Shown here: piece by piece, positions 699 through 25,040 of the stretch
Position numbering within the stretch: the stretch's first letter is position 1
How the letters are laid out: each line of letters opens with the position of its first letter
Source of the DNA: a virus
Lineage: Duplodnaviria > Caudoviricetes
Virus record (IMG/VR): IMGVR_UViG_3300048598_000496
Location: 1 to 46,713 of that record
DNA length: 46,713 nucleotides
Strand: one strand, 5' to 3'
Program-made: the position numbers and the translations under genes
The notes under the pieces: model-generated
What the model was told of the DNA's origin: nothing
Databases searched by the model: none
What the model saw: the letters and a program-made list of their open reading frames with translations, nothing else

Positions 699-962
699 TT
701 ATTTCTCCTCGCCGCGACAGGCCGCCAAAGCGGCTTCCAGCTGGATTTCATAGGCTTTTCGCGTCTCGTTCTCGGCCATCAGGGCCCGAACCTTTTCGTA
801 AAATCCGGCATCGCGCGGCAAATTATCCAAAGGCCACAAAGGCTTTGGCACAGCCGAAGCGCAGGGAACGGGCGCCGGATATTCAACCGCTACCGGTCGG
901 TAAATGCTTTCGTTTCCACAGGACGCCATGAAAAGAAGTATCAAGAATCCACAGTATTTCAT
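699..962 (-). CDS. o-spanin (Rz1-like outer-membrane lipoprotein)
   Basis: Signal peptide with lipobox (LFMAS-C), Pro-rich VPCASAVPKPLWP, KVRALMAE..AYE..LEAALAAC pattern; at distal end of lysis cassette. Confidence 0.75.
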   Translation of the reverse strand: MKYCGFLILLFMASCGNESIYRPVAVEYPAPVPCASAVPKPLWPLDNLPRDAGFYEKVRALMAENETRKAYEIQLEAALAACRGEEK

Positions 963-1716: not shown

Positions 1717-2091
1717 TTATCTTCCTGCAAATTTTTCCATCAAGTCCCGAACGGCTTGGCATTCGTCGCCACCTGAAGTCATGCGCAGTATCCGCTTGGC
1801 AAGCTGGCGATGGGCCGTGGCCTCTTTCTCGGCGCGGATCATTGCCTTATCGCGCAGTTCGATCAAGCGGGCCGCCTCGATCTTGGCCTTACGCGCAGCC
1901 TCGGCGGCGCTTTTGGTTTTCTCGGCCCAGTCGGCATTGATATTGCGGCATATGGCGACGTCGGCCTGCGTCTTGGCAAGCTCGGCCTCTAAATGCGCGC
2001 GCGACACAACAAGCCATAAAACAAAACTCGCCAAGCCCAGCGCCATGCCGCCGGCCACGATTATTTTCCAGTTATCGGGTAAGGCCATCAT
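1717..2091 (-). CDS. i-spanin (Rz-like)
   Basis: One N-terminal TM helix (IIVAGGMALGLASFVLWLVV), Ala-rich coiled coil, C-terminal Cys; follows holin. Start trimmed to MMALPD. Confidence 0.7.
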   Translation of the reverse strand: MMALPDNWKIIVAGGMALGLASFVLWLVVSRAHLEAELAKTQADVAICRNINADWAEKTKSAAEAARKAKIEAARLIELRDKAMIRAEKEATAHRQLAKRILRMTSGGDECQAVRDLMEKFAGR

Positions 2092-2326
2092 CCTTGTCCT
2101 TTGGTTCCGAATGTTCCTTGATCGCAATCCCGCCGGAGCCTCCAAACAAAAGCCCCGTCAACCCCATGCTGTAATTCAGCGCGTCGAACGGATGAGCTGA
2201 CACGAAGACATCGATCGCCGCGAACAGAATCAGACTAAAAAAGCCGATAAACAAAAGCACCCGCGCGATCTCGTAGGTTTCGTTATCCCGCCCCGTCAAG
2301 ATCATACGAAAAAACCCGCGCATCAC
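2072..2326 (-). CDS. putative holin (2 TM)
   Basis: 84 aa with two hydrophobic segments and a charged C-tail; start overlaps lysozyme stop. Confidence 0.65.
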   Translation of the reverse strand: MMRGFFRMILTGRDNETYEIARVLLFIGFFSLILFAAIDVFVSAHPFDALNYSMGLTGLLFGGSGGIAIKEHSEPKDKDDGLTR

Positions 2327-2832
2327 GCATCCCCGACGGGTTTATTCCACAGCCTTCCCTCGGCAGCGCGACGGCGGGCCAGACCGCCCAGAACCTCGTT
2401 ATTCGCGCGGTTCCAACGCATTAATTGCGCGGGAACCTGTTCGTACCATCCGCGATTCAGAAGCTTCAACAAGGTCGATTGCTCGAAATTGCCCTCGCCC
2501 ACATTGAAAACGAAACTGGCCAAGGCCGCATACTGGTTTTCGTTCAACGGCACCTTGACCAGACGCGTCACGACAAAGGCCGCGCTTTTCAAATCCTGCT
2601 GAAGCAGCGCATCGGCCTCTTCCGGCGTAATATTCATGCCCATGCGAACGCCGGACGTATGGCCATAGCCAATGCTCCAAACCTTGGCAGGACACATATA
2701 AGGGGTCAGATGAAGCCCTTCGAATTCCTTGACCAAGGCCACGCCATCGTCGTTCACGTCGCGCGTCAGCCAAAAAGCCGCCGATAGCGGCATATCTTTT
2801 TGCGAATATTCCATTTTTAAGGCGTCCTTCAT
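2323..2832 (-). CDS. endolysin, GH24 phage lysozyme
   Basis: VKEFEG..YMCPAKVWSIGYGHT, ALASFVFNVG, STLLKLLN, GLARRRAAE; ATG at 2832 overlaps upstream TGA (ATGA). Confidence 0.95.
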   Translation of the reverse strand: MKDALKMEYSQKDMPLSAAFWLTRDVNDDGVALVKEFEGLHLTPYMCPAKVWSIGYGHTSGVRMGMNITPEEADALLQQDLKSAAFVVTRLVKVPLNENQYAALASFVFNVGEGNFEQSTLLKLLNRGWYEQVPAQLMRWNRANNEVLGGLARRRAAEGRLWNKPVGDA

Positions 2833-3116
2833 CGCCGCGATTGCTTTTCGATTTGTTCCAAGAATCTCAATTGCGCTTCCTGTCTTTCTTCGATGCGCGC
2901 CAAGCGATCCGAAATCCGGTTCAAGCTTTTCGAAAAATCCGCGAGCGAGGTTTCCAATCCCCTCACCCTCTCGGACAGAAAAAAAAGGTCGCGCTCTTTT
3001 CCGGCGGCCCACCAGATCGCCGTCGCGGCCTGCAGCAAAATGGCCAAAACCAAGGCCAAAGGCACGCGTCGACCGTTCCCTTCTTCAAGGGCCAACTTCA
3101 TTGTTTTCTTGAGCAT
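2829..3116 (-). CDS. small membrane/coiled-coil phage protein of the lysis region
   Basis: RRVPLALVLAILLQAATAIWWA TM segment, then RLARIEERQ coiled coil; coupled to lysozyme. Confidence 0.7.
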   Translation of the reverse strand: MLKKTMKLALEEGNGRRVPLALVLAILLQAATAIWWAAGKERDLFFLSERVRGLETSLADFSKSLNRISDRLARIEERQEAQLRFLEQIEKQSRR

Positions 3117-3292: not shown

Positions 3293-3886
3293 TCAGGCTT
3301 TCGTTACCCGCACGCGCCATGTGCCAGAGGCCAAGGTCACGCTGGCCCCCGTCCCGTTTTGAACGCGAACAACGACACTGCTCGCCGCGCTGACATAGGC
3401 CGAGGCCACAACGCCTTGCAGATCATAGGGCGCGGCAACGACGGCAAAATCCCCCAAGGCCGCCCCTGTAACGGTCTGCGCCGACGAAGTAACTCCCGCC
3501 CCCATAGCGATGGCACCAGGATTCCACGTAAAGGTCGCATCCAAGGTCGGCGAGGCAATCGCGCTCCAAGCGCTGCCTGTATAATAAAGATATTTATTAT
3601 CCGCGACCGACCAGACGATCCATCCGGTCTTGGGGGTTTTGAATTTCCATCCCGAATAATAGGCCGCCAGAGAACCGCCGTATCCGCTCCACGCGCCGGT
3701 AGGGCTTGCCGCAATAATATAGGTATCGCCCGAATTGGGCGACGTTGGCGGCGTGGTCAAGCTTCGGCTGATAACGGAAGGTTGCGCCAGAAAATCGATA
3801 TCGTTCAGCGCATCGTTATGCGTGACTTCTTTCTGCGCTTGCGAGGTGGCGATATAGGCCATCGCAAGGCGTGGGCTTGTGGTCAT
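3293..3886 (-). CDS. DUF2793 tail-fibre protein
   Basis: SQAQKEVTHNDAL..D...PPTSPNSGDTYIIAASPTGAWSG..W.F..P..GW DUF2793 signature; AAGGAGG RBS before ATG 3886. Confidence 0.9.
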   Translation of the reverse strand: MTTSPRLAMAYIATSQAQKEVTHNDALNDIDFLAQPSVISRSLTTPPTSPNSGDTYIIAASPTGAWSGYGGSLAAYYSGWKFKTPKTGWIVWSVADNKYLYYTGSAWSAIASPTLDATFTWNPGAIAMGAGVTSSAQTVTGAALGDFAVVAAPYDLQGVVASAYVSAASSVVVRVQNGTGASVTLASGTWRVRVTKA

Positions 3887-3896
3887 GTTTTCCTCC

Positions 3897-6800
3897 TTAA
3901 ATAATCGCTGTTCCGGCGTTCCCGCGTCCATAGCGCGTGCCGATCTGATAGATTTTCACGGTAAAGCCCGATGGTATCGAGGCGCCGAAATCCGCCGTTT
4001 GTTGCGCGGCAGTGTAAACAACGGTGGGCGTGTTAAGACCGATAAAGCTTCGGATCAGGGTCGCGCCGTTATAAATCTCGACATCATATTGTTCGGTATC
4101 TTCGTCCAGCGGCGTATCGATATAATCGACCCAATCGGCGTTGATCCGCGCGCGGCGCACCCACGACAAGGTTAAATCGCTTCCCGTTCCGTATGTGCGG
4201 TTCCCTCGAATTTGCGAAGGGGCAAAAGGTCGCAGAGCGACGTTCGATCCTGAATAAGAAAAGGCCGCCCCCTCGCTCAAGCTTTGCCCGTGCGATAGAG
4301 CCTTGAAATAATAAGCCTTCCCGCGATCCGTCAAAAGGCACGGCATAAATTCCACAGATGATGAGTTCAATAACACAAACCGCTCGCCAACGGCGTGGGT
4401 TGAGGTGGCTGCCTCGGTTCCGCGCCGACCGCGCAGAAGCATAGATAACGTATATTGCCCAGGTGCCGTCAGGACCGCCGACTGGAATTGGATAATCTCG
4501 TCGCCGACTAGGGCGGCGTTCATGCCGTTTAAAAGATCAACCTCGGCGCAACTGGCAAGGCTTCCTTGATAAAGCTGAATGGTAAGGCTATTCCCCCGAT
4601 CCAAATATTCCGAAGGCGCAGCCGCCAAAGCCGTCGTCGCAATCCCCGCAACCGCCGCCGTGTCGAACGAGGCGACTTGCGTATAATTGGCATTATCCGG
4701 CGACCGCCACAGACTGCCGCCCTTCCACCCATCCAATCCGGAAAAGGCGACATAAAATCCGGGCTGATTATCCTCGGCACGCAACAATGGAATATCCATG
4801 ATAAACGGGATCGAAGCGACCGCCGCCGTTGTCGAATTATCGGCGGTCCGGTTGACATCCGCCTCGGCATCGCTGGTCACGGCTTGATCGGGGATCAGAC
4901 TTCCGCTTGCGGCCAAAACGCCGCTTTCCAAACTCAGGCTTTCGATCCGCATCAAGCCATCGTCGAGCGAAACGACGTCCGAAGGGTCTAGCGCCAAATG
5001 TTTTCTGGATAAAAAGATTCTGGCCTTGTCGCGTTCGCTCCACAGAGAATAAAGGCGAGCCTCCGCAATCTGTTTGGCTTTGCTGGCCGTCGCCACAATC
5101 GGAAGGGATAGTTTTGCAACCGCCTTCGCGCCGCGCGTCGCCAACCTTCTGGCGCGCTGCGTTCCGGTTTCATAATCGCGGCTGGCATCGATATAATCCA
5201 CGGTGATTTCAAGCGGCAGATCCAGTTCCTGCAATCGGGTCACGGCGACGGGAGGTTCGATTTTATCCGAGGTCGAGGCCTGAAGATCAGCGTTGTCAAT
5301 CGTAGCGCAAGCCGTATTGCCGCGCAGAACGGCGCGAAGCCGACCGGAAGTTTCGATCAAATCGAAAGGCTGATAGACCTGAAGCGGTTCGATAGCCTTG
5401 GCCGCCGTCATGGGATCGTCAAGAACATAGCCATTCAACGAAGTGTCCGAAAGCGCGCTGACGTCGAAATCGCCCGCCCCATAACCCGCGCGGGTAAGAA
5501 TGGCAGCCGTTACATGATCCAAGGTATCGCCGGTTTGGCATCTTTCGATAATGGCCAGCTGAGCAATCTCGTAATTCGGCGTCGCGACGGCCTGAAGCAG
5601 AAGCCTTGTGCCGTCCAGAAGAAAGGCGCTGAAATTCAGGCACGGATAGTCGTAACCGGGAACGATCCTGTCGTCCGTCGCCCATGAAAAACCGGCATCG
5701 TCCAACGAAATTTCGCTTAGCCTATAATAATTATCGGTCGAACGGCGCTGAACCATAATCAGTCTGTCGCCATACCTGACTGGCGAGTCGCAAGCCATGA
5801 CCTGAGCCCCGACATGGGTCAAGCTTTGCCATGGACGTACCGTCGTAACGCCAGTCGCCGTCGGCCGAAACGACATCAACTGAACATTCAGCGAAGTTGT
5901 AAAAACAATCGTCCACTCGCCCGTCGCGGTTTTTATGATCTGCGCCGTCGCGCCGGAACCTGTCGTGCTTTGCGTATAATTGGATGTAATCGAGAAAACG
6001 TCGCCAACCGCGATTGAGTTGTTTTGCCAGTATAAGGGGCGCGCCAAAAGCGATGTAAAATAGCCGAACCCGTTCGATACGATATGAAGCAGCGCTCCGT
6101 CGACCGGAATAAACTGGCTGTAAAAGAACGGATAGAGCGACGAAGCCGTTCCCGCGCCCCAAACGCCTGTGAACCCAAGATCGACAATATTCAGTCCCGA
6201 GCGCGCGAATAACCTTACCCCGCGCACGCCATTCAAAACATCGCTGATGATAAAATGAAGCGGATCGATCCAATAGACTTGCTTGAAGGTTTCGGGCGAC
6301 TGAGCATAGCTATAGATCGAGCCAAACTTCCGCGTCTCGGCATCAAAGATCACAAAGCGATAGGTTGTCGTATTGCCGTTGTCTTGACAATAGAAAGCGA
6401 CGAACCTGCCGTCGGGCGATACCGCCCACGAAGCATCGGATAGAGTCGAATAGGAAAAGGCATCGCCAATTGTTTTCGCGTTTAGGGCCGGAGCTTCGCC
6501 CGTCACATCATAGTCGGCGACGGTAAAGGCCAGGGTCGATCCGCTTTTGGTAAAACCGCCAATCAGAACACGGCTGGCGCGCGCCGAACTTCCGCCAATC
6601 ACGATGGGCGGCATGGCGTTGCTGCGGGCAATCGCCGCGTTCTGGTTGATATAGGTTCGCACATAGCCAAGCCACGCAGGGGTGGCGACGGTATTGGCCG
6701 GAAGAATTTCAAACGTCAGGCTGGGCAAACGATTGCCGAAGCTTTTCAGCTGAAGCCCCTGAAGCACCATATAGGAAAGCCCGCGATAGGCAGGAACCGC

Positions 6801-7328: not shown

Positions 7329-7736
7329 TTATTCCTTGATTCTGTAAACACCCAGAAGACGCCGACGCCAGTAATCGCCGATGCCGGTTTCCACCACGCG
7401 GCCCACAGGGGCAAAGGCGTGGATCATTGTTTGTTCGCCCGTCGCCAAGGCGACATGCTGGGGCTGATTGTCGTAACGAAACAGCAAAAGGTCGCCCGAT
7501 TGAATCGCATCGACCTTTTTGAAACCATGGGCCAGGATCGCCGCGACAAGCTTTTGTCCGTCGGGGCGCACGCCGTAATCGGTTTGATCGTGAACCTGAA
7601 TGCCCGCCGATCTCAATGAAACAACAACAAGACCGATACAATCCAAACCCACCCCTGCCGTCCGGCCCTGATGATGAAAGGGCGTACCAAGACATCCCCG
7701 CGCCGCGTGGATCAGGTTTAGCGATAAGTCGCTCAT
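7329..7736 (-). CDS. NlpC/P60 tail peptidase (g14-like)
   Basis: GTPFHHQGR..GLDCIGL, PQHVAL, MIHA. Confidence 0.95.
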   Translation of the reverse strand: MSDLSLNLIHAARGCLGTPFHHQGRTAGVGLDCIGLVVVSLRSAGIQVHDQTDYGVRPDGQKLVAAILAHGFKKVDAIQSGDLLLFRYDNQPQHVALATGEQTMIHAFAPVGRVVETGIGDYWRRRLLGVYRIKE

Positions 7737-8575
7737 CAGCTGCTTTCCGGATATTGCAAAATCTTCGACAGTCCCGGCAAATGCGGAAAGCCGCCAAAGT
7801 TGATCGCATTGTTGAATTTGCTTTGGCAGGTCGAGAACTTTTTATCGCACCCCGGAACGACGGAATAGGCATCGCCGACCGCGATATCGTTCGGCATCGG
7901 CAACCAAAGGGTAAAACGATACGAAGCCAGATCCCAGCTTTTGACTTCCATGGACAGGCCTTTGTTGGCGCCGGAAGTCCATGTCAAAAGGCCGTAATCG
8001 AACAAGCCATTCGTGGAAGAGTTCGATCCGTCGCAAAATTCGCTGCGGCTGGAAACAAGGCTGACCTTTCCAAGAACCGGAGAAAGACTGACGCCGCAAA
8101 GCGCGCAACCAAGATCGTGACGGCATTCCGGCGTAAAACGATTTCCGACCGTACGTTGCAACAGATCGTGAAAGCCGCGAAGTTCGGCCTTGAACGATCC
8201 GTTTTCGATCTTGACCTCTCCCAGCCATCCGCGACGAAGTTGAACCGTGCCTTGCGACGCATCGGCCCAATTGCATAGATAAACATCGATCCGCGCATGG
8301 TCGTAAAGGCCTGACCTAAGATCCTGTTCGTCGATCAAATCGCTTTGCAACAGGCCAAGGGCTTCGAAATCGTTCGTTTTCAAAGCGGCGTCGGATTCCA
8401 GCTTTTCGGTAGAAAAACTGCCGTTCGCGACATAGGTCACGCCCGCAATGACAAGATCGCGGTCATGCGTCGTAAAACCAAGTATGGTTCCGTCGGCGCG
8501 CGTAATTTTGATTAAGGTCGCAATGGTCGTATCGCCGGACAAATGGTTTTGCAAAGAGGCGGATAGGGTTTTCAT
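7736..8575 (-). CDS. DUF2163 baseplate hub (g13-like)
   Basis: GFTTHDRDL, CRHDLG..CGV, GCDKKFSTC..KFNN..NFGGFPHLPG. Confidence 0.95.
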   Translation of the reverse strand: MKTLSASLQNHLSGDTTIATLIKITRADGTILGFTTHDRDLVIAGVTYVANGSFSTEKLESDAALKTNDFEALGLLQSDLIDEQDLRSGLYDHARIDVYLCNWADASQGTVQLRRGWLGEVKIENGSFKAELRGFHDLLQRTVGNRFTPECRHDLGCALCGVSLSPVLGKVSLVSSRSEFCDGSNSSTNGLFDYGLLTWTSGANKGLSMEVKSWDLASYRFTLWLPMPNDIAVGDAYSVVPGCDKKFSTCQSKFNNAINFGGFPHLPGLSKILQYPESS

Positions 8576-9192
8576 GCGCGTATCTCGACCATGGGGACTT
8601 CGCCTTGAAACAGATTTCCGTCTTCGGATATCAGGTTCAGGATATCCGTATCGAAACGCACCGGAACGTCGAACAAGAAACCCGCCGTAACAATGGAACC
8701 CGACGCTGGTGCCAAAGCAAAAGTCACGACGCCCGATGTCGCATTCACTGTCCAGCCGCTTGTTTGAGCAACCCCGCCAAGGCCAATCAATATCGAACCA
8801 GACACAGGCTTTTGAATATTCCGCGCGAAAGAGCCGTTATTTTTGACAAGTTGAAACGAGGTTGTGCCCCCGTCGCCCGTGCCGAGAATTTGGTCGTCGA
8901 ACGAAGGCGACGAAATGCCGTCGGAAGCCGAAGAATAATCGTTCCAGTCCTTCAGACGAAAACCGCGCGCGCGACCGGCCCGTGCCTGAAAGAAGGCGGA
9001 GAGGGTCGCCGCGTCGGCAAAACTTTTGACGCCCGTGCGCGCTTCGTAGCGGCGGCGCGGTTGCGACCAAAGCTGGTTGCGACGTTCGTAGCCGCCCGCG
9101 ATTGTCACGACCTCGGTCATGAACTGGGGCCCGCCCGACGAGCCATAGCCTGCCCGAAGCGGAAACTGGATTTCATCGAAAGCGGTTGTCAT
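8572..9192 (-). CDS. DUF2460 distal tail protein (g12-like)
   Basis: FDEIQFP..SSGGPQF.TEVV..GYERRN..W, AFFQARAGRARGFRLKDW, AGFLFDVPVRFDTD; ATG 9192. Confidence 0.95.
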   Translation of the reverse strand: MTTAFDEIQFPLRAGYGSSGGPQFMTEVVTIAGGYERRNQLWSQPRRRYEARTGVKSFADAATLSAFFQARAGRARGFRLKDWNDYSSASDGISSPSFDDQILGTGDGGTTSFQLVKNNGSFARNIQKPVSGSILIGLGGVAQTSGWTVNATSGVVTFALAPASGSIVTAGFLFDVPVRFDTDILNLISEDGNLFQGEVPMVEIRA

Positions 9193-9515
9193 AGCAAGCC
9201 CCCCTCTTCCGCCCACAGATCCAGCCATTCGTTTTTCTCGTCACGATCGACGATGGCGCGGACAACAAAGCTGCGCGATCCGAAGACCAGCCTCATGCCC
9301 GTCGAAATATCCTCGCGATAACGCAAGACGATCTTGTGGGTCAGACGGCGATTGTAATTTGAGACCACGACGACCGTATCCGTCGCAATCGGGATCAGCT
9401 CGGCCCACAAGGGCGCTATATCGATCCAGCTACCTTTTTTGCCGCCTGATCCGTCGGGAACCAACGTTTCTTTTTGCAGCGTCATGCGCTTATTCAGATT
9501 TCCCGTCGCCATCAA
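9189..9515 (-). CDS. head closure/stopper protein (SPP1 gp16, g7-like)
   Basis: GNLNKRMTLQ..DGSGG...W..LWAE, THKIVLRYREDISTGMRL. Confidence 0.9.
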   Translation of the reverse strand: MMATGNLNKRMTLQKETLVPDGSGGKKGSWIDIAPLWAELIPIATDTVVVVSNYNRRLTHKIVLRYREDISTGMRLVFGSRSFVVRAIVDRDEKNEWLDLWAEEGGLL

Positions 9516-9559: not shown

Positions 9560-10219
9560 TCACATCACCCTGTACGGATTCAAAAGCGCCTGAATCAAAA
9601 GCGGCACATTGATCGCGCCATAGCGTGACGAGATATCGGCATTCGCGGTGCCAGGCATCAGCTCTTCGCCACGATGCGAATACCAGTGAAGCGCGAGCTG
9701 TTTGATGGCCAGTTTAATCGGCTCGGGCACGAAAGACGCGTCCGCGCCATAGCCGACGCGATACTCGACCATAAGGCCGTTCGCTTGGCGCGAAGGGGTT
9801 GGCCAAGCCGCGCCGGATCTTAAAACAAGCCGCCCAGGTTCATGAGAGGTGTCCACATAATAATTCCTTTGATCCCAGATAGTTGAGGAATTATCTTCAC
9901 TAAATACATTAATACTTGAAACGGACAACAAGGGCGACCGCGGAAGGAAAATCGCCTGATCCAGCGCGGCCTGTATCGCCCCTTCGAAGAAGCCGTCTTG
10001 GCAGCCGTTCGTATCAAACAACGGCATGTCGATCCACAACTGCCAGGTTTGATCGATGAAGCCGCGTGCGGTCGTGCGCTCGGCCCACTGTCGCGCCGCG
10101 ACGATCAATCCCGACAACAGTTCGTCGTCATCGGTTTGATCGATGCGGGCGTGGCTTTTTAATTCCGAAAGAGAAATGGGCTCGGATGCAGGCCCCGTTT
10201 TAAGATTGAATGACGTCAT
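9560..10219 (-). CDS. head-tail adaptor (gp6-like)
   Basis: PASEPISLSELKSHARID..DDELL..LIVAARQWAE, VPEPIKLAIKQLALHWYSHR, LLNPYR. Confidence 0.93.
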   Translation of the reverse strand: MTSFNLKTGPASEPISLSELKSHARIDQTDDDELLSGLIVAARQWAERTTARGFIDQTWQLWIDMPLFDTNGCQDGFFEGAIQAALDQAIFLPRSPLLSVSSINVFSEDNSSTIWDQRNYYVDTSHEPGRLVLRSGAAWPTPSRQANGLMVEYRVGYGADASFVPEPIKLAIKQLALHWYSHRGEELMPGTANADISSRYGAINVPLLIQALLNPYRVM

Positions 10220-10225
10220 GTTCCC

Positions 10226-11419
10226 TCACTGCGTAAGCGCAACCAATTCGGTCGAAGTTTTTGCGGATGGGTAATAGGTCAGACTTTGGATATGGCCGTT
10301 GAGGCTGCGTCCACTGCCCGCAAAATCGCCCAGATTGATTTGATTGAAAGACGGCACTCCCGAAGCGCCAAAGGTACCCGCCCCGTCGCTGACCCCATTG
10401 GCGGCAAAATTATTGCTTGCCGATTGATAGGACAGGCCCGTCTTGACGACCGATCCCGCCGTCACAGCCGACAAAGATCCCGCCGATGGAGTACTGGTGC
10501 CTGAAATAATGGTTTCGGCCAAAGGCGCGCCCGTGGTTCCGATTTCTGAGGCTATCAGATTGTTGCTCGTTCCATCGGACAGCGCGGCAACGCAACTTCT
10601 TCGCGACGAATTGACGCGTGGGATATAGGCGTTGACGATGAGGCTTCCTTTATCCGACTTGAGCCACGAAGGCGAAGCCATAGTAAGGCTATCCGCCAAG
10701 CGCGTCACGGCTAACGAGGTTGTCGGAATATAGGATGTTGGATAGGAGCAGTTCATTTCAAGCTGCGCGCCCCAGACCAGCAAATCCGCCGCCGCCCCTG
10801 CCGATCCGGCGAAGATGCCGGTGATGATGCCGATGCCACCTCCGCCAAAGGTCGTTGAAAACGAAAAACGCTGCCAAGACGTCGTCGCTATCATATCGCC
10901 AGACAGATAGTCGGCAATGCTGGACTGGCATATATCGATGCGGAAGGCCTGATTTGATCCCGTATTCGATTTTACCCAAAGGCTGAAACAATGGGTTTGT
11001 CCGCTTCCCAAGGAACTGCCGGACAAGACTTGCAGCATCATCGAATAGGTTGACAAATAGGCCCCCGCCGCGATCGTCGTTCGGGCCGCCGTTGTCGTCC
11101 CATCTGGCGCGGTCGCATAGGCCGCCGTTTTCGTCGCGCCATTCAAGACTTGCCAAAGACTGTTCGAGAAGTCTTGGGAATAGAGAAGACTGTTCGTCCT
11201 CGACTCTTCGACCAGCAAGCCCAGAGGCTGGAGAGTCGAAGGGTTATAGTCGAAACGCGGCACGCCACTAGCGGCTTGAGCTATAAGGCCCGACGCATTC
11301 GTATAAGTCGCAATCGAGGCTCGGGAAAAAGTCGCGCCCGACGGCAACGAGGTTTTGAAATCGAGGCTCGTCACCGACGCGCCAGACTTTTTCTTCGTAA
11401 CAAACAGCAGCGGGTCCAT
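10226..11419 (-). CDS. head spike fibre-like protein
   Basis: FSRASIATY.NASGLI..PRFDYNP..GLLVEESRTN, WGAQLE..PTSYIPTT..VTR.AD motifs of phage/GTA head fibres. Confidence 0.8.
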   Translation of the reverse strand: MDPLLFVTKKKSGASVTSLDFKTSLPSGATFSRASIATYTNASGLIAQAASGVPRFDYNPSTLQPLGLLVEESRTNSLLYSQDFSNSLWQVLNGATKTAAYATAPDGTTTAARTTIAAGAYLSTYSMMLQVLSGSSLGSGQTHCFSLWVKSNTGSNQAFRIDICQSSIADYLSGDMIATTSWQRFSFSTTFGGGGIGIITGIFAGSAGAAADLLVWGAQLEMNCSYPTSYIPTTSLAVTRLADSLTMASPSWLKSDKGSLIVNAYIPRVNSSRRSCVAALSDGTSNNLIASEIGTTGAPLAETIISGTSTPSAGSLSAVTAGSVVKTGLSYQSASNNFAANGVSDGAGTFGASGVPSFNQINLGDFAGSGRSLNGHIQSLTYYPSAKTSTELVALTQ

Positions 11420-11422
11420 GGC

Positions 11423-11779
11423 CTACACCGAGCGCAAGACAAATTGAAGGACGCTATCCTGCGCCTGAGCAACCGCCGAGGCCGAAGCGCCCGAACGCGC
11501 CTTGACATACTGCATGGCTGGAAAGACCGTGGGATCGAGATAGATGTACCGCGACGCTGCCGCCGTGACGGTGAACTCGTTGCCGCTGGCGTCATACAGA
11601 TTGTACCAGGTGCTGCCGTCGGGCGAGATTTGGAAGGTCAGGTTTGCCGCCGTCCAGACAGACGGCATGACAATGCCAAACAAACGAAGTCCGCCGAAAT
11701 TGACGGCTGGCGTCAAAGAGGTGCCGGATGAAATCGTTGCGGGAACGACCTCGGCAATATTGGTGATGGTTTCGCGCAT
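11423..11779 (-). CDS. virion structural protein, candidate head spike base
   Basis: Beta-rich 118 aa (MPSVWTAANLTFQISPDG) between capsid and fibre genes. Confidence 0.6.
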   Translation of the reverse strand: MRETITNIAEVVPATISSGTSLTPAVNFGGLRLFGIVMPSVWTAANLTFQISPDGSTWYNLYDASGNEFTVTAAASRYIYLDPTVFPAMQYVKARSGASASAVAQAQDSVLQFVLRSV

Positions 11780-11870: not shown

Positions 11871-12269
11871 TTAAACCGTCGGAATATTGCGCGGATATCC
11901 GGCAATGACCGATGCCACACTGACCGCGCCCGTGGTGGCACCTGTCGTCGTCATGACGACGCGGACGTAACGCTGGGTTCCGATATAGCCGAGGCTTTGC
12001 GTCGTATTCGCGCCCGCCGACGAACTGACTGCGGAAAAACTGCCGTCCATGTCGGATGCCGCGCAGGCCGTAAAGGTCGCATTATCCATCGAATGCTGAA
12101 GCGACGGCGTATGGGTGCCGTCCGTATAGGCTCCGAAGGCGACCACGATGACGGCGGCGTCGAATCCGCGAAGATCGACGCCCGTACCCGTAAAGGTTCC
12201 CGTCACGCGCGCGGCGGGAGCCAGAGATTGCGACGTGGCAATACGCCGCAGCAAATCACGATTTGCCAT
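11871..12269 (-). CDS. capsid-associated decoration protein
   Basis: Directly after the capsid gene; GTGVDLRGFDAA..LQHSMD..GYIGTQRYVRV pattern. Confidence 0.65.
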   Translation of the reverse strand: MANRDLLRRIATSQSLAPAARVTGTFTGTGVDLRGFDAAVIVVAFGAYTDGTHTPSLQHSMDNATFTACAASDMDGSFSAVSSSAGANTTQSLGYIGTQRYVRVVMTTTGATTGAVSVASVIAGYPRNIPTV

Positions 12270-14430: not shown

Positions 14431-15627
14431 CTAATTAAGTTCATCGCCGCCTTGGATCGGCCCGTAACCGAGAGCTTCGCGCTTTTCGTTGACGGTCAAA
14501 AAGTCGGCATTCTGCACCTTGTCCCAGACCGCGTTACGGCGGACCGATAGAGCGCTGATCTCGTCCGGATCGAAATCAAGCGTGATATTTTCGGCGTACA
14601 TAGGAACCAGCCAATGATCGAATGACGCCACGACGCGCGAAAGAAGCGGCAGGATGGTTTCTTCGTAAAAAGCCAGTCGCGCTTCTTGCATGTTGGCGTA
14701 AGTCTGGCTTCCTGGAATGCCTACAAGCTGCGACGGAACGCCAAACGCCAAGGCTATATCCCGCGCGACCGCGTCGCGGCCCGAAAGCCAATCCATTTCC
14801 TTGGGACTGAGGCTCATTTCGCGCCAGTCCAATCCGCCTTCGAGGATCAACGGGCGACCTGCGTTGCGCGAGCCGCCGTAGAGGCGATCCATCTCTTCCC
14901 GCAGGCGCGCCATCTGGTCGTCGGCCAGAGTTTGTGGCCCGTCTTTCGGCGCATAGACCAAAGCGCCTGAGGGCCTTGCCCCTTGGTTTAAAAGCGCCTG
15001 ATTCCAAGCACCTGCGGCATTATGTTGATCTATCGATAGAAGCGCGGCCTCCATCGGCGACATGCCGTACCAGTCGTCCAGAGGATGAAAATTCTTGATA
15101 TGCAAAATGGCCGAAGCCCCCGTGACCGGATCGACGTTCCAACGGGTCAACTGGCCGCCTACATTATATTCATAGGCTTGCGGCAAACCCTGCGGACCCG
15201 GGACGACGCGCATGCGGTCGGGACGGAGGACGTAAAGCTCGGTCGGCTCGGATGAATCGTCGGCCATGACGGCTTCGATATAGGCATTGCCCGCAATTTC
15301 GATATTGGCAAAAATATTTTCAAGAAAGGCCGCGGCGTCCTGCAAAGGATTGGGGTGGCGCAACAGATCGGAAAGCGGGTGGTTATCGACCTCGCTTCCG
15401 CGATCGTCGTACAAAAGCCACGGCACCGCCGAACAGGCCGAGGCGATAGCCATGACGCAGCGATAGGCGACGACGTTTTTACGAAATCCTTCCTCGGCCA
15501 AGCCGTCGTAGCGACGCGGCGTCCATTTCGGACGGCCCACGTTCGACCACGCGACCAAAGGGCCCGCGCGGCTTGACTTGGTTTCGGGGCGAAGAGCTGA
15601 GAAATTGAACCAGGGCTTCAGCAGCAT
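14431..15627 (-). CDS. portal protein (HK97/GTA)
   Basis: LRPDRM, FHPLDDWYGMSP, NQGARPSGAL, LEGGLDW, TYANMQEAR, FLTVNEKREALGY. Confidence 0.97.
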   Translation of the reverse strand: MLLKPWFNFSALRPETKSSRAGPLVAWSNVGRPKWTPRRYDGLAEEGFRKNVVAYRCVMAIASACSAVPWLLYDDRGSEVDNHPLSDLLRHPNPLQDAAAFLENIFANIEIAGNAYIEAVMADDSSEPTELYVLRPDRMRVVPGPQGLPQAYEYNVGGQLTRWNVDPVTGASAILHIKNFHPLDDWYGMSPMEAALLSIDQHNAAGAWNQALLNQGARPSGALVYAPKDGPQTLADDQMARLREEMDRLYGGSRNAGRPLILEGGLDWREMSLSPKEMDWLSGRDAVARDIALAFGVPSQLVGIPGSQTYANMQEARLAFYEETILPLLSRVVASFDHWLVPMYAENITLDFDPDEISALSVRRNAVWDKVQNADFLTVNEKREALGYGPIQGGDELN

Positions 15628-15756: not shown

Positions 15757-17094
15757 CTATAAGCTTCTGATCTTCGGATCGGCGCGGCGCATATCCGACA
15801 GGGCCGTCAGGGCCCAGACCAGCGCATCGACGCGATCCGGCGACTTTTCGGAAATCAATTCGGGCGCAAAACGCGCCATCTGGTCTTCCAGCTTTTCCAT
15901 CGGGCCGACATGCCAAACGCTTCCCTGTTCGTAGAGCGACGCGATGGGCAGAGCCCTGTCCAACTTGCTGCGAATGGCGCGAACCGCTTTGAACGGAACC
16001 CTTGGCGCGATTTGTTTCAACATCTCCTCGACCAAGTCTCCGCCCGCGTTGATCTCGGCGACGATGCAGTCGGCCTTGATATCCTCGGCCAAATGCACCG
16101 CCTGACGCGCCCAAACATCCGGCGCATAACGTCCCGAACGGTCGGCCAGAACGTAATAGAGACCGTCCTTGCCCCTGCCCGCCGCGACGATGCCGGTTTC
16201 GTCGCTTTCGGCCCCACCTGTCATAGCGGGATCGATGGCGACGACAATCGAGGCCATTTCGGGCGCTTCGGTTATATGGCACGAATCCAGATCCGTGCGA
16301 CGCCACAGCGAACCTTCGAAATCGGTCAAAAGCTCGGCTTCGAGTTCTTGGCGGCCCAATCTTGTTCCGGCATAGCGTCGCATCAACTGCTCCATCACCG
16401 CGGGCGCGATATGATCGGCGTTATCCGTCGTTCGTCCGCGCGTTAAATGCACATCGCTGCCCGACCTTGCCACCAGTTCGCGCAAGACCTCGCGGTTGCG
16501 CGGGGTCGTCGTAATCACAACGCGCGGATCGCGGCCCAGACGAAGCCCGAACCAAAGCTGGTCGAAAGCTTTGCGCGAAGGCCAAGCGCCAAGCTCGTCG
16601 CACCAGATGCGATGATGCTGGGGGCCGCGCAATCTTTCCGGCTCTTCCGCCGAAAACAGCTTGAACCGGCTTCCGTTCGTCAAGGTCAATTCGCCCATGC
16701 TGCGATGCCAGTCGTCGACGCAATCGCGCGGAAGGACGTTCATCAATCCGCTTTCGCCCTCGACACAGACATCACGCGCGTCGCTTTCCGTCGGCGCGAT
16801 GATCCCGATGCGGCAACGCGGATGCGACATAGCGTAATCCGCCGCGTCTTCGGCCCCCGTTCGGGTTTTACCCCAACCGCGTCCCGCCAAGATCAACCAG
16901 ACGCGCCAGTTACCCGGCGGCGTGATCTGGTTCGGCCTTGCCGCCTTGATCCACTTCAGCCGGGCGATCAGCGCCAGCAACTCCGGCGTCGGTAGCGCTT
17001 CCAAATTTAAGCGCAGCGAACTCAGCCAGCAGGCTTCGGGCGTCACGGATGGCTTCCATCCGGGCTTTGTCATCGGATTGACGGGCTTTGTCAT
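15757..17094 (-). CDS. terL: terminase large subunit
   Basis: AGRGWGKTR Walker A, LRGPQ..WCDE Walker B, TTTP, AIDPA, SPDRVDALVWA nuclease; true start may be about 80-100 nt downstream. Confidence 0.97.
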   Translation of the reverse strand: MTKPVNPMTKPGWKPSVTPEACWLSSLRLNLEALPTPELLALIARLKWIKAARPNQITPPGNWRVWLILAGRGWGKTRTGAEDAADYAMSHPRCRIGIIAPTESDARDVCVEGESGLMNVLPRDCVDDWHRSMGELTLTNGSRFKLFSAEEPERLRGPQHHRIWCDELGAWPSRKAFDQLWFGLRLGRDPRVVITTTPRNREVLRELVARSGSDVHLTRGRTTDNADHIAPAVMEQLMRRYAGTRLGRQELEAELLTDFEGSLWRRTDLDSCHITEAPEMASIVVAIDPAMTGGAESDETGIVAAGRGKDGLYYVLADRSGRYAPDVWARQAVHLAEDIKADCIVAEINAGGDLVEEMLKQIAPRVPFKAVRAIRSKLDRALPIASLYEQGSVWHVGPMEKLEDQMARFAPELISEKSPDRVDALVWALTALSDMRRADPKIRSL

Positions 17095-17266
17095 TTTCTC
17101 CGTTCATGTATTTCACCAAGTCCATAAGGGCGCGCGCCGCCGCGACACGCGAAGATTCGCTCTCGCCGCTTTCCATAAGCGTGGTGAGGTTCTTCTCGAT
17201 CAGGGCGGTGGCGCGTTTCAGCTTGTCCTCGCCGGAGATCGGCGGGAGTGGCGATGCGTCAGTCAT
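16910..17266 (-). CDS. putative terminase small subunit
   Basis: Helical 118 aa (SESSRVAAARALMD) upstream of and overlapping terL, as GTA g1/g2 do. Confidence 0.6.
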   Translation of the reverse strand: MTDASPLPPISGEDKLKRATALIEKNLTTLMESGESESSRVAAARALMDLVKYMNGENDKARQSDDKARMEAIRDARSLLAEFAALKFGSATDAGVAGADRPAEVDQGGKAEPDHAAG

Positions 17267-17577: not shown

Positions 17578-17805
17578 ATGGGCACAGGCCCTATTTCTTC
17601 CGGTACCGCCGCTAATGCCGCCGCGATTAGCACGCTTTTGCGCGCCCAATCGATGGCCACGACGGGCATGAAGGTCAACCAGCAGGCCGGTCAGGCCATT
17701 ATCGATCAGCTGCAAACCAATGTGGCCAAGAATTCAGCCTCGGTTCAGGATTCTTCCGGAAGCGGCACCCTGCCCCGCGGCAGCTTGCTGGACATGACGG
17801 TTTAA
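17578..17805 (+). CDS. small hypothetical protein, YjfB-like
   Basis: Q-rich helix and C-terminal RGSLLDMTV. Confidence 0.55.
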   Translation: MGTGPISSGTAANAAAISTLLRAQSMATTGMKVNQQAGQAIIDQLQTNVAKNSASVQDSSGSGTLPRGSLLDMTV

Positions 17806-19772: not shown

Positions 19773-21251
19773 CTAGTATGCGGAACATTTTGCAGGATCC
19801 GTTCCCGCGGCCCCCGTGCAGGTCCACGACCACCCCATGAATCCCGGATTGCAGCAATGGTACTGTTCGCACCCATAGCATCCGGGATAGCTGACGACGC
19901 ATTCCCAGCACGAGCTCCTGTTTTGGTATCCGCAAGTGCGATAACCCTGCGGAACCGTATAGATGGTGCATCCACCTGAACCTAGGCAGATCCCGCTGTA
20001 ATAGGTATAGCCCGGGCATACATCCGATAGAGCTGTCACCGGCGAAGCGGTTCCGCTGGCGCACAAATCGGCGGTGGGAGCCGAAGAAAAGCTCTTTCCG
20101 TTTGCAGCGCCGCAAGCGCCTTTATCGACGCAATTTTGATACGTAAAACTGCCGGACAGGGTGCCGTTGCTTTGGCATACTCTGGTTTCCGAATTACAGC
20201 TTCCGCCGCCAGACGCGGCGCTTGCCTCATAGGCTGTCACCTCGTCCCCGACCGAGACGCTGCCGCCCCATGGGAGATTGCAGTTCGTAGCGGTCGCGCA
20301 AGATTGGTTGGCACCGCCGTTCACCCCCTGACAGATCCAGCTCCACGAAGAGCTGCTTCCTGTCGGCGAGGTTGCGTTTCCGGTGCTGCACAAGCCGGAT
20401 GTCGGCGCGCTTGAATATTTTTCGCCATTCGCGGAACCGCAAGCTCCGTCGATCTTGGGCGCATAATTGCCCGAACAATCGGCAACAGCCGCATAGTCCC
20501 CGCCGTCCTGACTGACATAAAGCCTCGCAGAAATGCCGGGAGACGACCAACTGAAAGAGGGCGCCTTTCCGTTCGCAAGGAAGCTGAGCAATTGATCCTG
20601 AACAAACGAAACCGACCGGCATTTTTTCGTGCCTTGGTTATCGGTCGAACAATCCTGTCGCGCATAAGAAAACTCGGCCGGACTTTTGCCGCGTTCCGTC
20701 GAGCCGACCGAAGTTGTGGTCGAGCCGGGATTCGACGGATTAAGGACCAGCATATAGGAACTGACAATGACAGGAGATGTCGAACTGTTCGTCGAAGGAA
20801 CATTGATCGGGCTTGACATCGCAGGCGACCAAACGCCCGTCGAACACGAAGCGAAACCTTGGGGATATGCGATATATTGTTGTGGCGCGACGGCGTAACC
20901 GGAAGAAACGCCAAGAACTGACGCATCGAGAAATCTTTGAAACTCATTCTGGGTGGCCTGAGGCACAAAATAGTTATTGCCGCTGTCGTTGCTGACAAAG
21001 CGGGGGCCAATCGCAGGCCAGTTATTGAACAAGATATATTGCGCGCCGCTTTTGAGCCGGATTCCTTTGCTGATACTGACGGCAGGAGCCGCCGTATAGG
21101 ACAAAGGCTCGTACTGACAATCTTCGGACTTGGTGCTGGTCGTATCGCAGCCCCCCTCAACATCTTTGCCGTAAACCGTTGCGATCGGAAGAAGAGAAAG
21201 AGCAAGGGCAAAAACTGCGAATTTCAGAAAACGACAAAAGGAATTTTGCAT
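19773..21251 (-). CDS. secreted Cys-rich repeat protein
   Basis: Signal peptide; GACGSANG..P..LCS.G..WSW.C repeats; CNLPWG..VTAY..ETR.C..GTLSGS repeat. Confidence 0.8.
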   Translation of the reverse strand: MQNSFCRFLKFAVFALALSLLPIATVYGKDVEGGCDTTSTKSEDCQYEPLSYTAAPAVSISKGIRLKSGAQYILFNNWPAIGPRFVSNDSGNNYFVPQATQNEFQRFLDASVLGVSSGYAVAPQQYIAYPQGFASCSTGVWSPAMSSPINVPSTNSSTSPVIVSSYMLVLNPSNPGSTTTSVGSTERGKSPAEFSYARQDCSTDNQGTKKCRSVSFVQDQLLSFLANGKAPSFSWSSPGISARLYVSQDGGDYAAVADCSGNYAPKIDGACGSANGEKYSSAPTSGLCSTGNATSPTGSSSSWSWICQGVNGGANQSCATATNCNLPWGGSVSVGDEVTAYEASAASGGGSCNSETRVCQSNGTLSGSFTYQNCVDKGACGAANGKSFSSAPTADLCASGTASPVTALSDVCPGYTYYSGICLGSGGCTIYTVPQGYRTCGYQNRSSCWECVVSYPGCYGCEQYHCCNPGFMGWSWTCTGAAGTDPAKCSAY

Positions 21252-21507
21252 TTTTCCTCGCTCTCGGCCACAGGGGGCCTTATGGATAATCCGATTGGTT
21301 GTAAAAGCTAAGCTTTATGCAATAATCACACAATAGTAATTCAAGAAGAGAGCCGGAAAGGATGGTTTTTCTTTGCGGCGGCCAAAATCCAAGTTATTGA
21401 TATAAAAGAGAAAGGCAGGCCTATCTGTCCCAAAACCCCTTAAGACTGTTGGGCAAGCCCATAGTCATCGCCTTCGCATTGGCAATCGCACCCCAAAACA
21501 ACACGCT

Positions 21508-22368
21508 TTAGTTTTCAGACAGCGGCACAAATATTTTGGCTTCATCCGGATATTTTTTCAAAATACCATCAAGCACGCCCTTCTTTTGAAGTTGCACGAT
21601 AGCGCCATCGATCATGATCTTGAGCGAAGCGTTGCTTTTTTCGATCGGATAGCCCAAGGCCAAAATCCGTATGGGACGATCCCCCGCCTGCTTAAGAAGG
21701 TCGGGATGCAACTTGTTATAATCGTCAAACGCCGTTGGCGTTTCAATCGCCACATCCGCTTTCGACGCTGCTACAGCCGCAAAGGCGTCGTCAGGCGTGG
21801 AATCTTCGCCAAGAAGCACCTTCTCTGACTTTGGAAGGTCTTCATTCACGACATATTTCGCCGACGAACCGGGCGAAACCGCAACTTTAATATTGGACCG
21901 GTCAGCTGCACTTATATTCTGATCGAACCTTCCGTCATTTCTACGCACATATAACATATAGGGTTGCTTCAAAAGCGAAGCCGCAAATATCATTTTGTCC
22001 GATCTTTTTTTGGTTTCCAAAAACTGTAAGCAAAACACGTCATATACATCGTTTTTGAAAGCATCGGGGTCGCGGAATGGCGAGCGCCCGCCTTCAACCC
22101 AAACGATCTTTTTTCCAAGGGCCTTGCCAACCTCTTCCATCAAGTCATAGTTGAACCCGACGCGCGTCACCGCCTTGCTATCTTTTTCAAAAAGACCGCC
22201 CGCGCAACGAATTGTATCGTCACGTTTCTCATACACGAGCTGCTGGCCGGGTTCCGTAGGCCTGCCATTCGATACTGGCTTTGTTTTTTCTTGCACGCCC
22301 CAAACATCAAGAGCCGCCACGATGCTCGCCAGAACAACTAGGCTCACTATGACCTTTCGTATTCTCAT
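21508..22368 (-). CDS. amino-acid ABC-type periplasmic binding protein (SBP family 3), orphan
   Basis: GFNYDLMEEVGKALG.KI.W, AFAAVAASKAD, LQKKGVLDGILKKY; N-terminal signal. Confidence 0.8.
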   Translation of the reverse strand: MRIRKVIVSLVVLASIVAALDVWGVQEKTKPVSNGRPTEPGQQLVYEKRDDTIRCAGGLFEKDSKAVTRVGFNYDLMEEVGKALGKKIVWVEGGRSPFRDPDAFKNDVYDVFCLQFLETKKRSDKMIFAASLLKQPYMLYVRRNDGRFDQNISAADRSNIKVAVSPGSSAKYVVNEDLPKSEKVLLGEDSTPDDAFAAVAASKADVAIETPTAFDDYNKLHPDLLKQAGDRPIRILALGYPIEKSNASLKIMIDGAIVQLQKKGVLDGILKKYPDEAKIFVPLSEN

Positions 22369-22434
22369 TCCCCCCTCAATTCGCCACACCGTGGCAGTAA
22401 TCCCAGTCCATCACTTCCTTAATCAAACTAGTCC

Positions 22435-24471: not shown

Positions 24472-25040
24472 GGAAGAGTCTCCCCTTTCGCAATCGCATG
24501 GACGAAAGCCACCGACTTCAGGCCGTTTTTGCCGTGGCAGCGCAAAACATAAGTGTTTATGCCCGCAAATGTTGGCGCGACCTCTTCTTCCCCATTCGTT
24601 GTTTTGGGGCCGGACCATCCACCCTCCGCTTCGCAAAAGACGGATTCAGGCGAGGTTCGCCAAAACAGTTTGACCTTCGCGTTCGAAGGAACAGTGACAA
24701 TTGAAACTTCATCACCCTTTGGGTCGATTGCCTTAAGCGTCAAGTCGGGCCCATAGGAGACAATCGGCGTCCAGACAGACTTTTGGTCTTTCGCTTCGGC
24801 CTTCCATTCCACCGAAGCGTAAACGCGCGTCCACTCATCGTGACATGTCATGCTGAAGGGTTGGGGGCTCTCGGATTTATCCTCTCCGGCCTTCGGAAGT
24901 GCTTTCGGTGTTGGCGATAATTGGCTTTCAGCGCAACCTGCGTAATTGGCACGAACAACAGGCCATCTTTCATCCTGTTGTATGCAAGCCGTCAGAAGCG
25001 ACGCGATTACCGTAAGTGTCAATAGACGGAGGGCATACAT
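24468..25040 (-). CDS. lipoprotein with beta-rich (Ig-like) C-terminal domain
   Basis: Lipobox LLTAC; ATGA-coupled to the Hint protein; L.W....C....GWSG..TYVLRC. Confidence 0.75.
   Translation of the reverse strand: MYALRLLTLTVIASLLTACIQQDERWPVVRANYAGCAESQLSPTPKALPKAGEDKSESPQPFSMTCHDEWTRVYASVEWKAEAKDQKSVWTPIVSYGPDLTLKAIDPKGDEVSIVTVPSNAKVKLFWRTSPESVFCEAEGGWSGPKTTNGEEEVAPTFAGINTYVLRCHGKNGLKSVAFVHAIAKGETLP

Follow-up and report, generated by a model that had tools for sequence, protein, structure and literature searches.

The question raised by this locus is whether a GTA of the Rhodobacter capsulatus type (RcGTA) can do without its tail tube. In the window, meaning the whole 46,713-nucleotide stretch that was analysed, the minus strand carries an operon in RcGTA order that runs from the large terminase (15757-17094) through to the lysis genes, and every particle gene lies on that strand. 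Homologues of g2-g7 and g12-g15 follow one another as in RcGTA; the order g1-g7 and g12-g15 described in the first-pass annotation was thus borne out by Pfam, TIGRFAM, PHROG and RcGTA matches, with g1 as a candidate only. Tube, terminator, chaperones and tape measure (g8-g11) are absent from the window. The genes of the operon, all on the minus strand, are as follows.

16913-17266, minus strand: candidate small terminase (g1), 118 aa, adjoining TerL upstream; tblastn matches in 10 other family loci, no match in a Pfam search
15757-17094, minus strand: large terminase (g2, TerL); PF03237, PF17289; Walker A (GRGWGKT) and Walker B (WCDE) both intact as read from the translation
14431-15627, minus strand: portal (g3); PF04860, TIGR01537
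13860-14444, minus strand: prohead protease (g4); PF04586
12375-13679, minus strand: HK97 major capsid protein (g5); PF05065, TIGR01554
11871-12269, minus strand: capsid decoration protein, 132 aa; PDB 8cjz (capsid decoration) E 3e-4, 3j4u (cementing protein) E 0.0096
11423-11779, minus strand: small protein without a named family, likely the head-spike base; usually adjoins the spike gene in relatives
10226-11419, minus strand: head spike fibre; NF048003 GTA_spike_fiber E 1e-32
9560-10219, minus strand: head-tail adaptor (g6); PF05135, TIGR02215
9189-9515, minus strand: stopper or head-closure protein (g7); PF05521 E 2e-22
8572-9192, minus strand: distal tail protein (g12), 206 aa; PF09343, TIGR02217; RcGTA Rcc01695 E 1e-76
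7736-8575, minus strand: baseplate hub (g13); PF09931, PF09356
7329-7736, minus strand: NlpC/P60 peptidoglycan peptidase (g14); PF00877
3897-7325, minus strand: megatron-like protein (g15), 1142 aa; RcGTA megatron match at residues 7-210 and 606-1138 only
3293-3931, minus strand: DUF2793 tail-fibre-like protein; PF10983 E 8e-27
2323-3012, minus strand: endolysin, true start probably near 2810; PF00959 and translation
2072-2326, minus strand: putative holin-like small hydrophobic protein; from the translation, no Pfam match
1717-2145, minus strand: putative inner-spanin-like protein; hydrophobic N-terminus, related sequence at the same position in relatives
699-962, minus strand: putative outer-spanin-like lipoprotein; a lipobox-like cysteine, a proline-rich stretch, and homologues that follow the endolysin in relatives

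RcGTA (Bardy 2020, PMC7296036; PDB 6TBA) and the window have the same gene order, and for terminase, portal, capsid, adaptor, stopper, distal tail, hub, peptidase, megatron, head spike and DUF2793 fibre the proteins of the two are homologous. RcGTA, however, has a terminator, a five-ring tube, chaperones and a tape measure, none of which is found in the window cluster, whereas the window has its decoration, spike, fibre and lysis genes inside the operon and a different megatron centre. Megatron residues from about 210 to 600 match neither the RcGTA nor the R4C peripheral domain, and the form of roughly 1140 aa is common to the whole order. Three head-decoration genes stand between capsid and adaptor (11871-12269, 11423-11779 and 10226-11419). 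The first gave a weak PHROG 'major tail protein' match confined to the C-terminal half of that profile; its identification as a hidden tail tube was rejected, as it resembles capsid decoration proteins (8cjz, 3j4u). Atlas neighbours of the second are unnamed viral proteins, and it shows a weak resemblance to F5/8-type domains.

At the site of g8-g11, the g7 stop codon TGA (9189-9191) overlaps the g12 start codon ATG (9190-9192) on the minus strand, giving ATGA at 9189-9192, and a purine-rich ribosome-binding site for g12 (GAGGGGG) lies inside g7. The overlap of the head-closure stop with the distal-tail start had already been reported in the first-pass annotation and agrees with the sequence; the open reading frame listed at 8572-9228 is indeed the distal tail gene, with its true start, as judged from alignment with homologues, at 9192 and not at the listed position. 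The accompanying claim that there is neither room nor remnant for g8-g11 also held, as profiles built from relatives for g8, g9, g11 and a small gene x (described below) found nothing above the inclusion threshold when run against the window in all six frames (best E 0.055).

Locus L014 gave access to the relatives; with L015 and L016 it belongs to a single family, whose 55 genomes measure 1.0-3.2 Mb and are incomplete MAGs without completeness values. The closest g12 homologues are 58-67% identical and mostly metagenomic, with others labelled Alphaproteobacteria, Rhodospirillaceae or Bdellovibrionales bacterium; the hosts are a family of uncultured alphaproteobacteria. An orthologue of the distal tail gene was found in 37 of the 55 genomes at E<1e-90, as a single copy in each. 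The gene-order survey covered 34 cluster stretches of the family, a few more that were added later, and the loci from the homologue search. Two arrangements were seen. The order g6-g7-g12, here called clade B, is shared by the window, 15 genomes and two viral contigs (18 loci), while the 21 genomes of clade A have the order g6-g7-g8-x-g12, in which x encodes a tape-measure-like protein of about 110 aa. Variants within clade A are G003, which is without x, and G007, which shows only x, at a contig start. Gene order was untypable in G040, G049 and G006, the first of which groups with clade B in the tree; the cluster of G006 (L361, G006:C45) is rearranged, with the distal tail followed by the decoration gene and then the peptidase. 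A g10 chaperone-like open reading frame is kept in the clade-A genome G045 (L300, G045:C45:9632-9799), and no tube gene was found in the cluster of that genome.

The direct g7-g12 adjacency thus recurs in 17 loci besides the window (15 genomes and two viral contigs). Conservation of this junction had been proposed as a check, and it is the layout that is conserved, the exact ATGA overlap being confined to the window. Spacing between g7 and g12 is -11 to about +28 bp in 14 of the 18 clade-B loci; in the other four, about 150-350 bp of palindromic repeats intervene without any tube-module open reading frame. These longer gaps (L290, L315, L287 and L316) hold palindromic and short tandem repeats, and similar palindromes stand between genes in other clusters of the host family. 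Clade-B proteins are about 21-50% (g7) and 56-67% (g12) identical to those of the window, and the open reading frames are near full length, with the exception of a split g7 in G051, a split g12 in G057 and a missing g14 in G008. In this last genome (L296:10982-14878), g13 and g15 form a single in-frame fusion of hub and megatron, 1298 aa long, and g14 is absent from the cluster.

Among 253 loci, 70 have a neck gene upstream of g12, and these comprise 62 with g9, seven of the host family and one with a 4.7-kb gap. A six-gene tree (49 rows, three skipped) gave support of 100 for clade B, 100 for clade A and 99 for the two together. A stricter tree of capsid and hub, built without g7 and g12 (34 rows, with three of 37 skipped for a missing gene), recovered clade B at 100/99 and clade A at 100/98, although the monophyly of A and B together reached only 89/73 there. 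The g7-g12 junction has one origin and is old and monophyletic. The tube persists in relatives outside the family; clade A retains the terminator and x, both of which clade B lacks. The simplest history is a stepwise loss, the tube having been lost in the family ancestor and the terminator and x later in clade B. The match of gene x to g11 covers only the C-terminal 25 columns, a helix (hhalign E 0.004, probability 7.8), and comparison with the g11 HMM gave E values of 2e-4 to 0.2 over 11 sequences, which weakly suggests that x may be a tape-measure remnant. Other rearrangements were seen in tube-bearing clusters. In G063 (L342:9478-11566), outside the family, the adaptor gene is followed by the tube gene, g7 and g8 being gone and the tube kept, and the same adaptor-then-tube pattern appeared for L216 in a profile search. 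The tape-measure gene g11 sits between hub g13 and peptidase g14 in L339:13087-13707, L340, L341, L343 and L346.

A tube module could, however, also reside elsewhere on the chromosome, and the family genomes were therefore searched as well. The PF06199 tube was found in none of the 55 genomes, and neither PF08813 tubes nor the g10 chaperone (PF11836) exceeded the cut-off in any of them. With a tube profile from the nearest tube-bearing relatives, the same 55 genomes gave just two faint matches, both inside unrelated long open reading frames. As a positive control, the 16 other genomes of the order were searched, and 10 have a tube (E 1e-17 to 1e-23); in all nine of the tube-bearing relatives that were fetched it lies in an orthologous cluster, after the neck genes and before the distal tail. 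Gene x was found in 20 of the 55 genomes, all of clade A and none of clade B. The terminator was found in 21, namely in 20 clade-A clusters and in one clade-B genome, G029; the latter was rejected as a clade-B g8, being on a separate phage-like contig. In the clade-B genomes tested, g10.1 was absent from five of five, and of four searched for g11 one gave matches, solely to prophage tape measures. A tube-like open reading frame noticed by eye on the G029 phage contig was missed by all three tube families searched, so that very divergent tubes can escape. Since the genomes are incomplete and one tube-like open reading frame escaped, the case for absence of the GTA tail tube from the host family appears strong, though short of proof. 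The first-pass annotation had named homologues of g8-g11 elsewhere as the finding that would make this an ordinary split GTA; no GTA tube turned up in the 55 family genomes, and the window's own chromosome was searched within 46.7 kb. As between the tube-less particle and the split GTA that it had offered, the former is supported (no tube in 55 genomes, an old monophyletic layout) and the latter disfavoured.

Selection on the remaining genes was estimated from dN/dS values that are approximate, dS being near or above 1 and a third clade-B pair mostly saturated. In two clade-B pairs these were 0.05-0.08 for the capsid, 0.10-0.12 for the distal tail and 0.11-0.15 for the adaptor, and in one clade-B pair 0.06 for g14 and 0.15 for g15. 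The stopper gave 0.32-0.38 in clade B as against 0.20 in a clade-A pair and 0.09 in a tube-bearing pair. Head and baseplate genes are therefore under purifying selection and the stopper is relaxed; the relaxed selection that the first-pass annotation had listed as speaking against its reading is seen in the stopper, but not in the head and baseplate genes of clade B (0.05-0.15). As in a GTA, the cluster is single-copy and lineage-wide (37 of 55 genomes) and under purifying selection (dN/dS 0.05-0.38, rough values). It is real, old and selected, and resembles an RcGTA-type GTA apart from the lack of g8-g11.

The proteins that would have to meet in the absence of a tube were compared between clades. 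According to the available text of Bardy 2020 (PMC7296036), the RcGTA stopper contacts the terminator through its long loop, the tube long loop contacts the distal-tail short loop, and the DNA is held by the tape measure and the iris. Identity in the stopper long loop is 0.17 in clade B versus 0.59 in clade A, the loop being nearly deleted in 3 of 17, whereas other clade-B genes retain 79-100% of the clade-A identity level. The model of the window stopper (pLDDT 85, with loop 42-58 less confident) gave SPP1 gp16 as its best fold match and the RcGTA stopper at rank 4, and as modelled the clade-B stopper keeps its core fold while its distal long loop has diverged. All 17 clade-A and all 8 tube-bearing distal-tail sequences have an aromatic residue close to the C-terminus (F in RcGTA), which none of the 16 from clade B has. 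Position and the RcGTA alignment suggest that this C-terminal loop corresponds to the RcGTA-type 'short loop'; the single-chain distal-tail model does not place it, since 83 of 206 residues, the loop included, have pLDDT <50. The ring-stacking loops of both clade-B proteins thus appear to have changed.

Further differences were found in the hub and the megatron. Within the order, every one of the 23 loci that belong to clade A or carry a tube has hub residues D68/N69; among 32 canonical GTAs, 28 have D68 and 27 have N69. In clade B the numbers drop to 2 and 1 of 14 hubs, and K66 has been gained in 12 of the 14. Within clade A, G003 lost x independently, and N69 and its neighbours are also lost there. 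Megatron R24 is found in 12 of 14 clade-B sequences versus none of 20 others of the order. The mean number of K/R residues in the megatron iris segment is 3.1 in clade B, 0.36 in clade A and 0.33 in tube-bearing relatives; at 1.6 in canonical tubed GTAs (24 loci), a basic iris is not peculiar to tube-less clusters. The structural positions given to the hub, iris and loop residues are those that the alignments would imply, and the changes in clade B are a single evolutionary event and not independent cases.

Taken with moderate confidence, the reading favoured here is that an RcGTA-type chromosomal cluster minus g8-g11 would encode a stub-tailed GTA particle with its baseplate docked on the neck. 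Intact terminase would package host DNA into a decorated HK97 head that is closed by adaptor and stopper, and the distal-tail ring with the baseplate would attach directly beneath the stopper ring. Release would be by lysis, binding via head spikes and fibres, and ejection into the periplasm in an RcGTA-like manner. Since stopper, terminator, tube and distal tail share one fold and form homologous hexameric rings (Bardy 2020, PMC7296036, available text), the stack could shed rings; a series would then run from tube-bearing relatives, through a terminator with a mini tape measure in clade A, to a stopper on the distal tail in clade B. The tail would be shortened by about six rings of 38.3 Å each, or about 23 nm of the 49 nm of RcGTA. 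The sequence patterns suggest that clade A has its terminator on the distal tail with a mini plug and clade B no plug, in which case the megatron iris, perhaps with the g14 peptidase, would keep the DNA end in place. The fuller version, in which a siphovirus-type tail was cut ring by ring to a podovirus-like stub, the clade-B stopper hexamer rests on the distal-tail hexamer with nothing in between and a more basic iris replaces the tape measure, is put forward only tentatively. To our knowledge, no solved virion has a stopper-on-distal-tail interface, and a search of the open-access literature found no description of such a GTA particle.

It was also possible that clade B still makes both head and baseplate under selection without joining them directly, so that the head would be a stopper-closed capsid and the baseplate would serve a separate role, or that the particle has been repurposed for something other than gene transfer. 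The surfaces presumed to dock are where clade B is least conserved (long-loop identity 0.17, aromatic 0 of 16), which counts against docking; both facing loops have lost conserved residues, the stopper is relaxed, and the loop losses would fit a lost contact equally well as a remodelled one. Repurposing of reduced GTAs is raised in the available part of George 2022 (PMC9254644). However, 18 loci keep head, baseplate, fibre and lysis genes together in a single operon, the terminase retains its motifs, and hub and iris have changed in step with the loss of the tape measure, suggesting, if the channel lies where it is presumed to, that the baseplate still faces the DNA channel. Such uncoupling is considered unlikely, though of the alternatives it survives best.

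Alternatively, a helper phage might lend tube, chaperones, tape measure and terminator, as for capsid-forming PICIs. Lambda-like prophages with their own tubes (PF18906) occur in 14 of the 55 genomes, including 8 of 16 in clade B and 5 of 21 in clade A (Fisher p 0.16, not an independent test); those at L322-L327, often several per genome, have a 313-aa tube and a tape measure of about 840 aa, and their distal tail, hub and megatron are related to those of the GTA. A second DUF2460 family was likewise considered as the missing module and rejected, as the four of six fetched loci that were read gene by gene were lambda-like prophages. The related distal tails would suit a borrowed tail, and the variable stopper loop could mirror changing partners. 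Against this, half of the clade-B genomes are without such a prophage, the cluster's own baseplate is kept under strong selection, the tape-measure-associated hub motif is lost, and the distal-tail loop of clade B is no closer to four prophage proteins than that of clade A (0.20-0.25 versus 0.21-0.27). Borrowing is accordingly rated improbable. The cluster itself is no intact or recent prophage, being single-copy in 37 genomes, whereas the prophages of the same family are patchy, multi-copy and tubed.

RcGTA-type GTA systems are multi-locus, so a tube module beyond detection elsewhere on the chromosome would have precedent, tube families being divergent, one tube-like open reading frame having been missed and the window's chromosome being seen over 46.7 kb. 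The tubes of the nearest relatives are nevertheless easily found and their profile gave nothing credible in 55 genomes, clade-B searches for g10.1 and g11 yielded prophage tape measures at most, and the tube-interface residues are lost; a split GTA is therefore thought quite improbable. That the GTA is dead or decaying, or the junction misassembled, could be argued from a few broken genes in MAGs and the relaxed stopper, but is hardly credible and largely refuted, because the same layout stands in 17 other loci on long branches, with open reading frames near full length and dN/dS far below 1, which effectively excludes the recent decay and misassembly against which the coupled junction had already been taken to argue.

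Tube-less GTA gene sets have already been published for Rickettsiales. In its available part, Table S3 of George 2022 (PMC9254644) gives g6, g7, g8, g12 and g13 without g9-g11 in Orientia tsutsugamushi, Phycorickettsia and Rickettsia bellii, sets that resemble clade A, and g6, g7, g12 and g13 without g8-g11 in Deianiraea, Sarmatiella and Sneabacter, which resemble clade B; the authors allow there for reduction or undetected genes, and in Sneabacter and Sarmatiella the accession numbering leaves one unassigned number between g7 and g12. The reduced GTAs of Rickettsiales and Holosporaceae are described in the same available text as scattered and divergent, with tail dN/dS of 0.2-0.9. The window, in contrast, has a whole operon, a junction too tight for a hidden gene, baseplate dN/dS of 0.06-0.15, and surviving intermediates. 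What is new in the window and its family is the gap-free junction, the stepwise series with surviving intermediates and the matching residue changes.

Two other systems invite comparison. The cf-PICIs (He et al., bioRxiv 10.1101/2025.02.11.637232, as far as its available text shows) likewise have their own capsid and packaging genes and no tail tube, but they rely entirely on the tails of phages, and the DNA they package is their own island, whereas the window cluster keeps baseplate, fibre and lysis genes; a cf-PICI would have no tail genes whatever, and here g12-g15 and the fibre are both retained and under selection. With podovirus-type phages, P22 for example, the likeness is in the predicted shape, a head bearing a stub, with receptor-binding parts near the neck. 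Unlike these, the window encodes siphovirus-type stopper, distal-tail and hub proteins, and a nozzle or needle gene is absent; the needle comparison with short-tailed phages is drawn in the available text of Bardy 2020 (PMC7296036).

If the particle works, tube, chaperones, terminator and tape measure would be dispensable in a siphovirus-derived DNA-delivery device, and the cluster would be a GTA reduced to its minimum and would illustrate, in a natural series, the exchange of tail rings and the origin of short from long tails. The Rickettsiales GTAs with a 'missing tail' may then be complete stub-tailed particles and not decaying ones, and the intermediates (tube; terminator and mini tape measure; bare stopper; the adaptor and tube of G063) would make the long-to-short-tail transition testable. 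As the genes are small and close kin of solved RcGTA proteins, the docking claim is open to testing in laboratory strains.

The surroundings of the cluster vary. Upstream in the window, 19773-24636 holds a pair of cysteine-rich repeat proteins, one with a terminal Hint domain, and 26044-46045 is a defence island with an HTH and M78 peptidase pair, a SMODS cyclase with patatin (CBASS-like), DUF3854 over two open reading frames ahead of an AAA_25 helicase, a serine recombinase, type III restriction-modification, an SNF2 helicase and a Fic protein. The serine recombinase and primase-helicase of this island lie 15 kb upstream of the cluster. Flanks of four clade-B loci, read by eye, differ and showed no integrase or replication module. 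The DUF6456 gene, which we take to be GafA/GafZ-related (GTA activator type), was not found in the window; it is present as one copy in 56 of 71 genomes of the order, often directly upstream of the terminase, and in 17 genomes lies on the cluster's own contig, no more than about 16 kb from g12 or g9. A plus-strand open reading frame of 75 aa (17578-17805) lies immediately upstream of the terminase in the window, and in L317 and L296 similar-looking short open reading frames separate the DUF6456 gene from the terminase.
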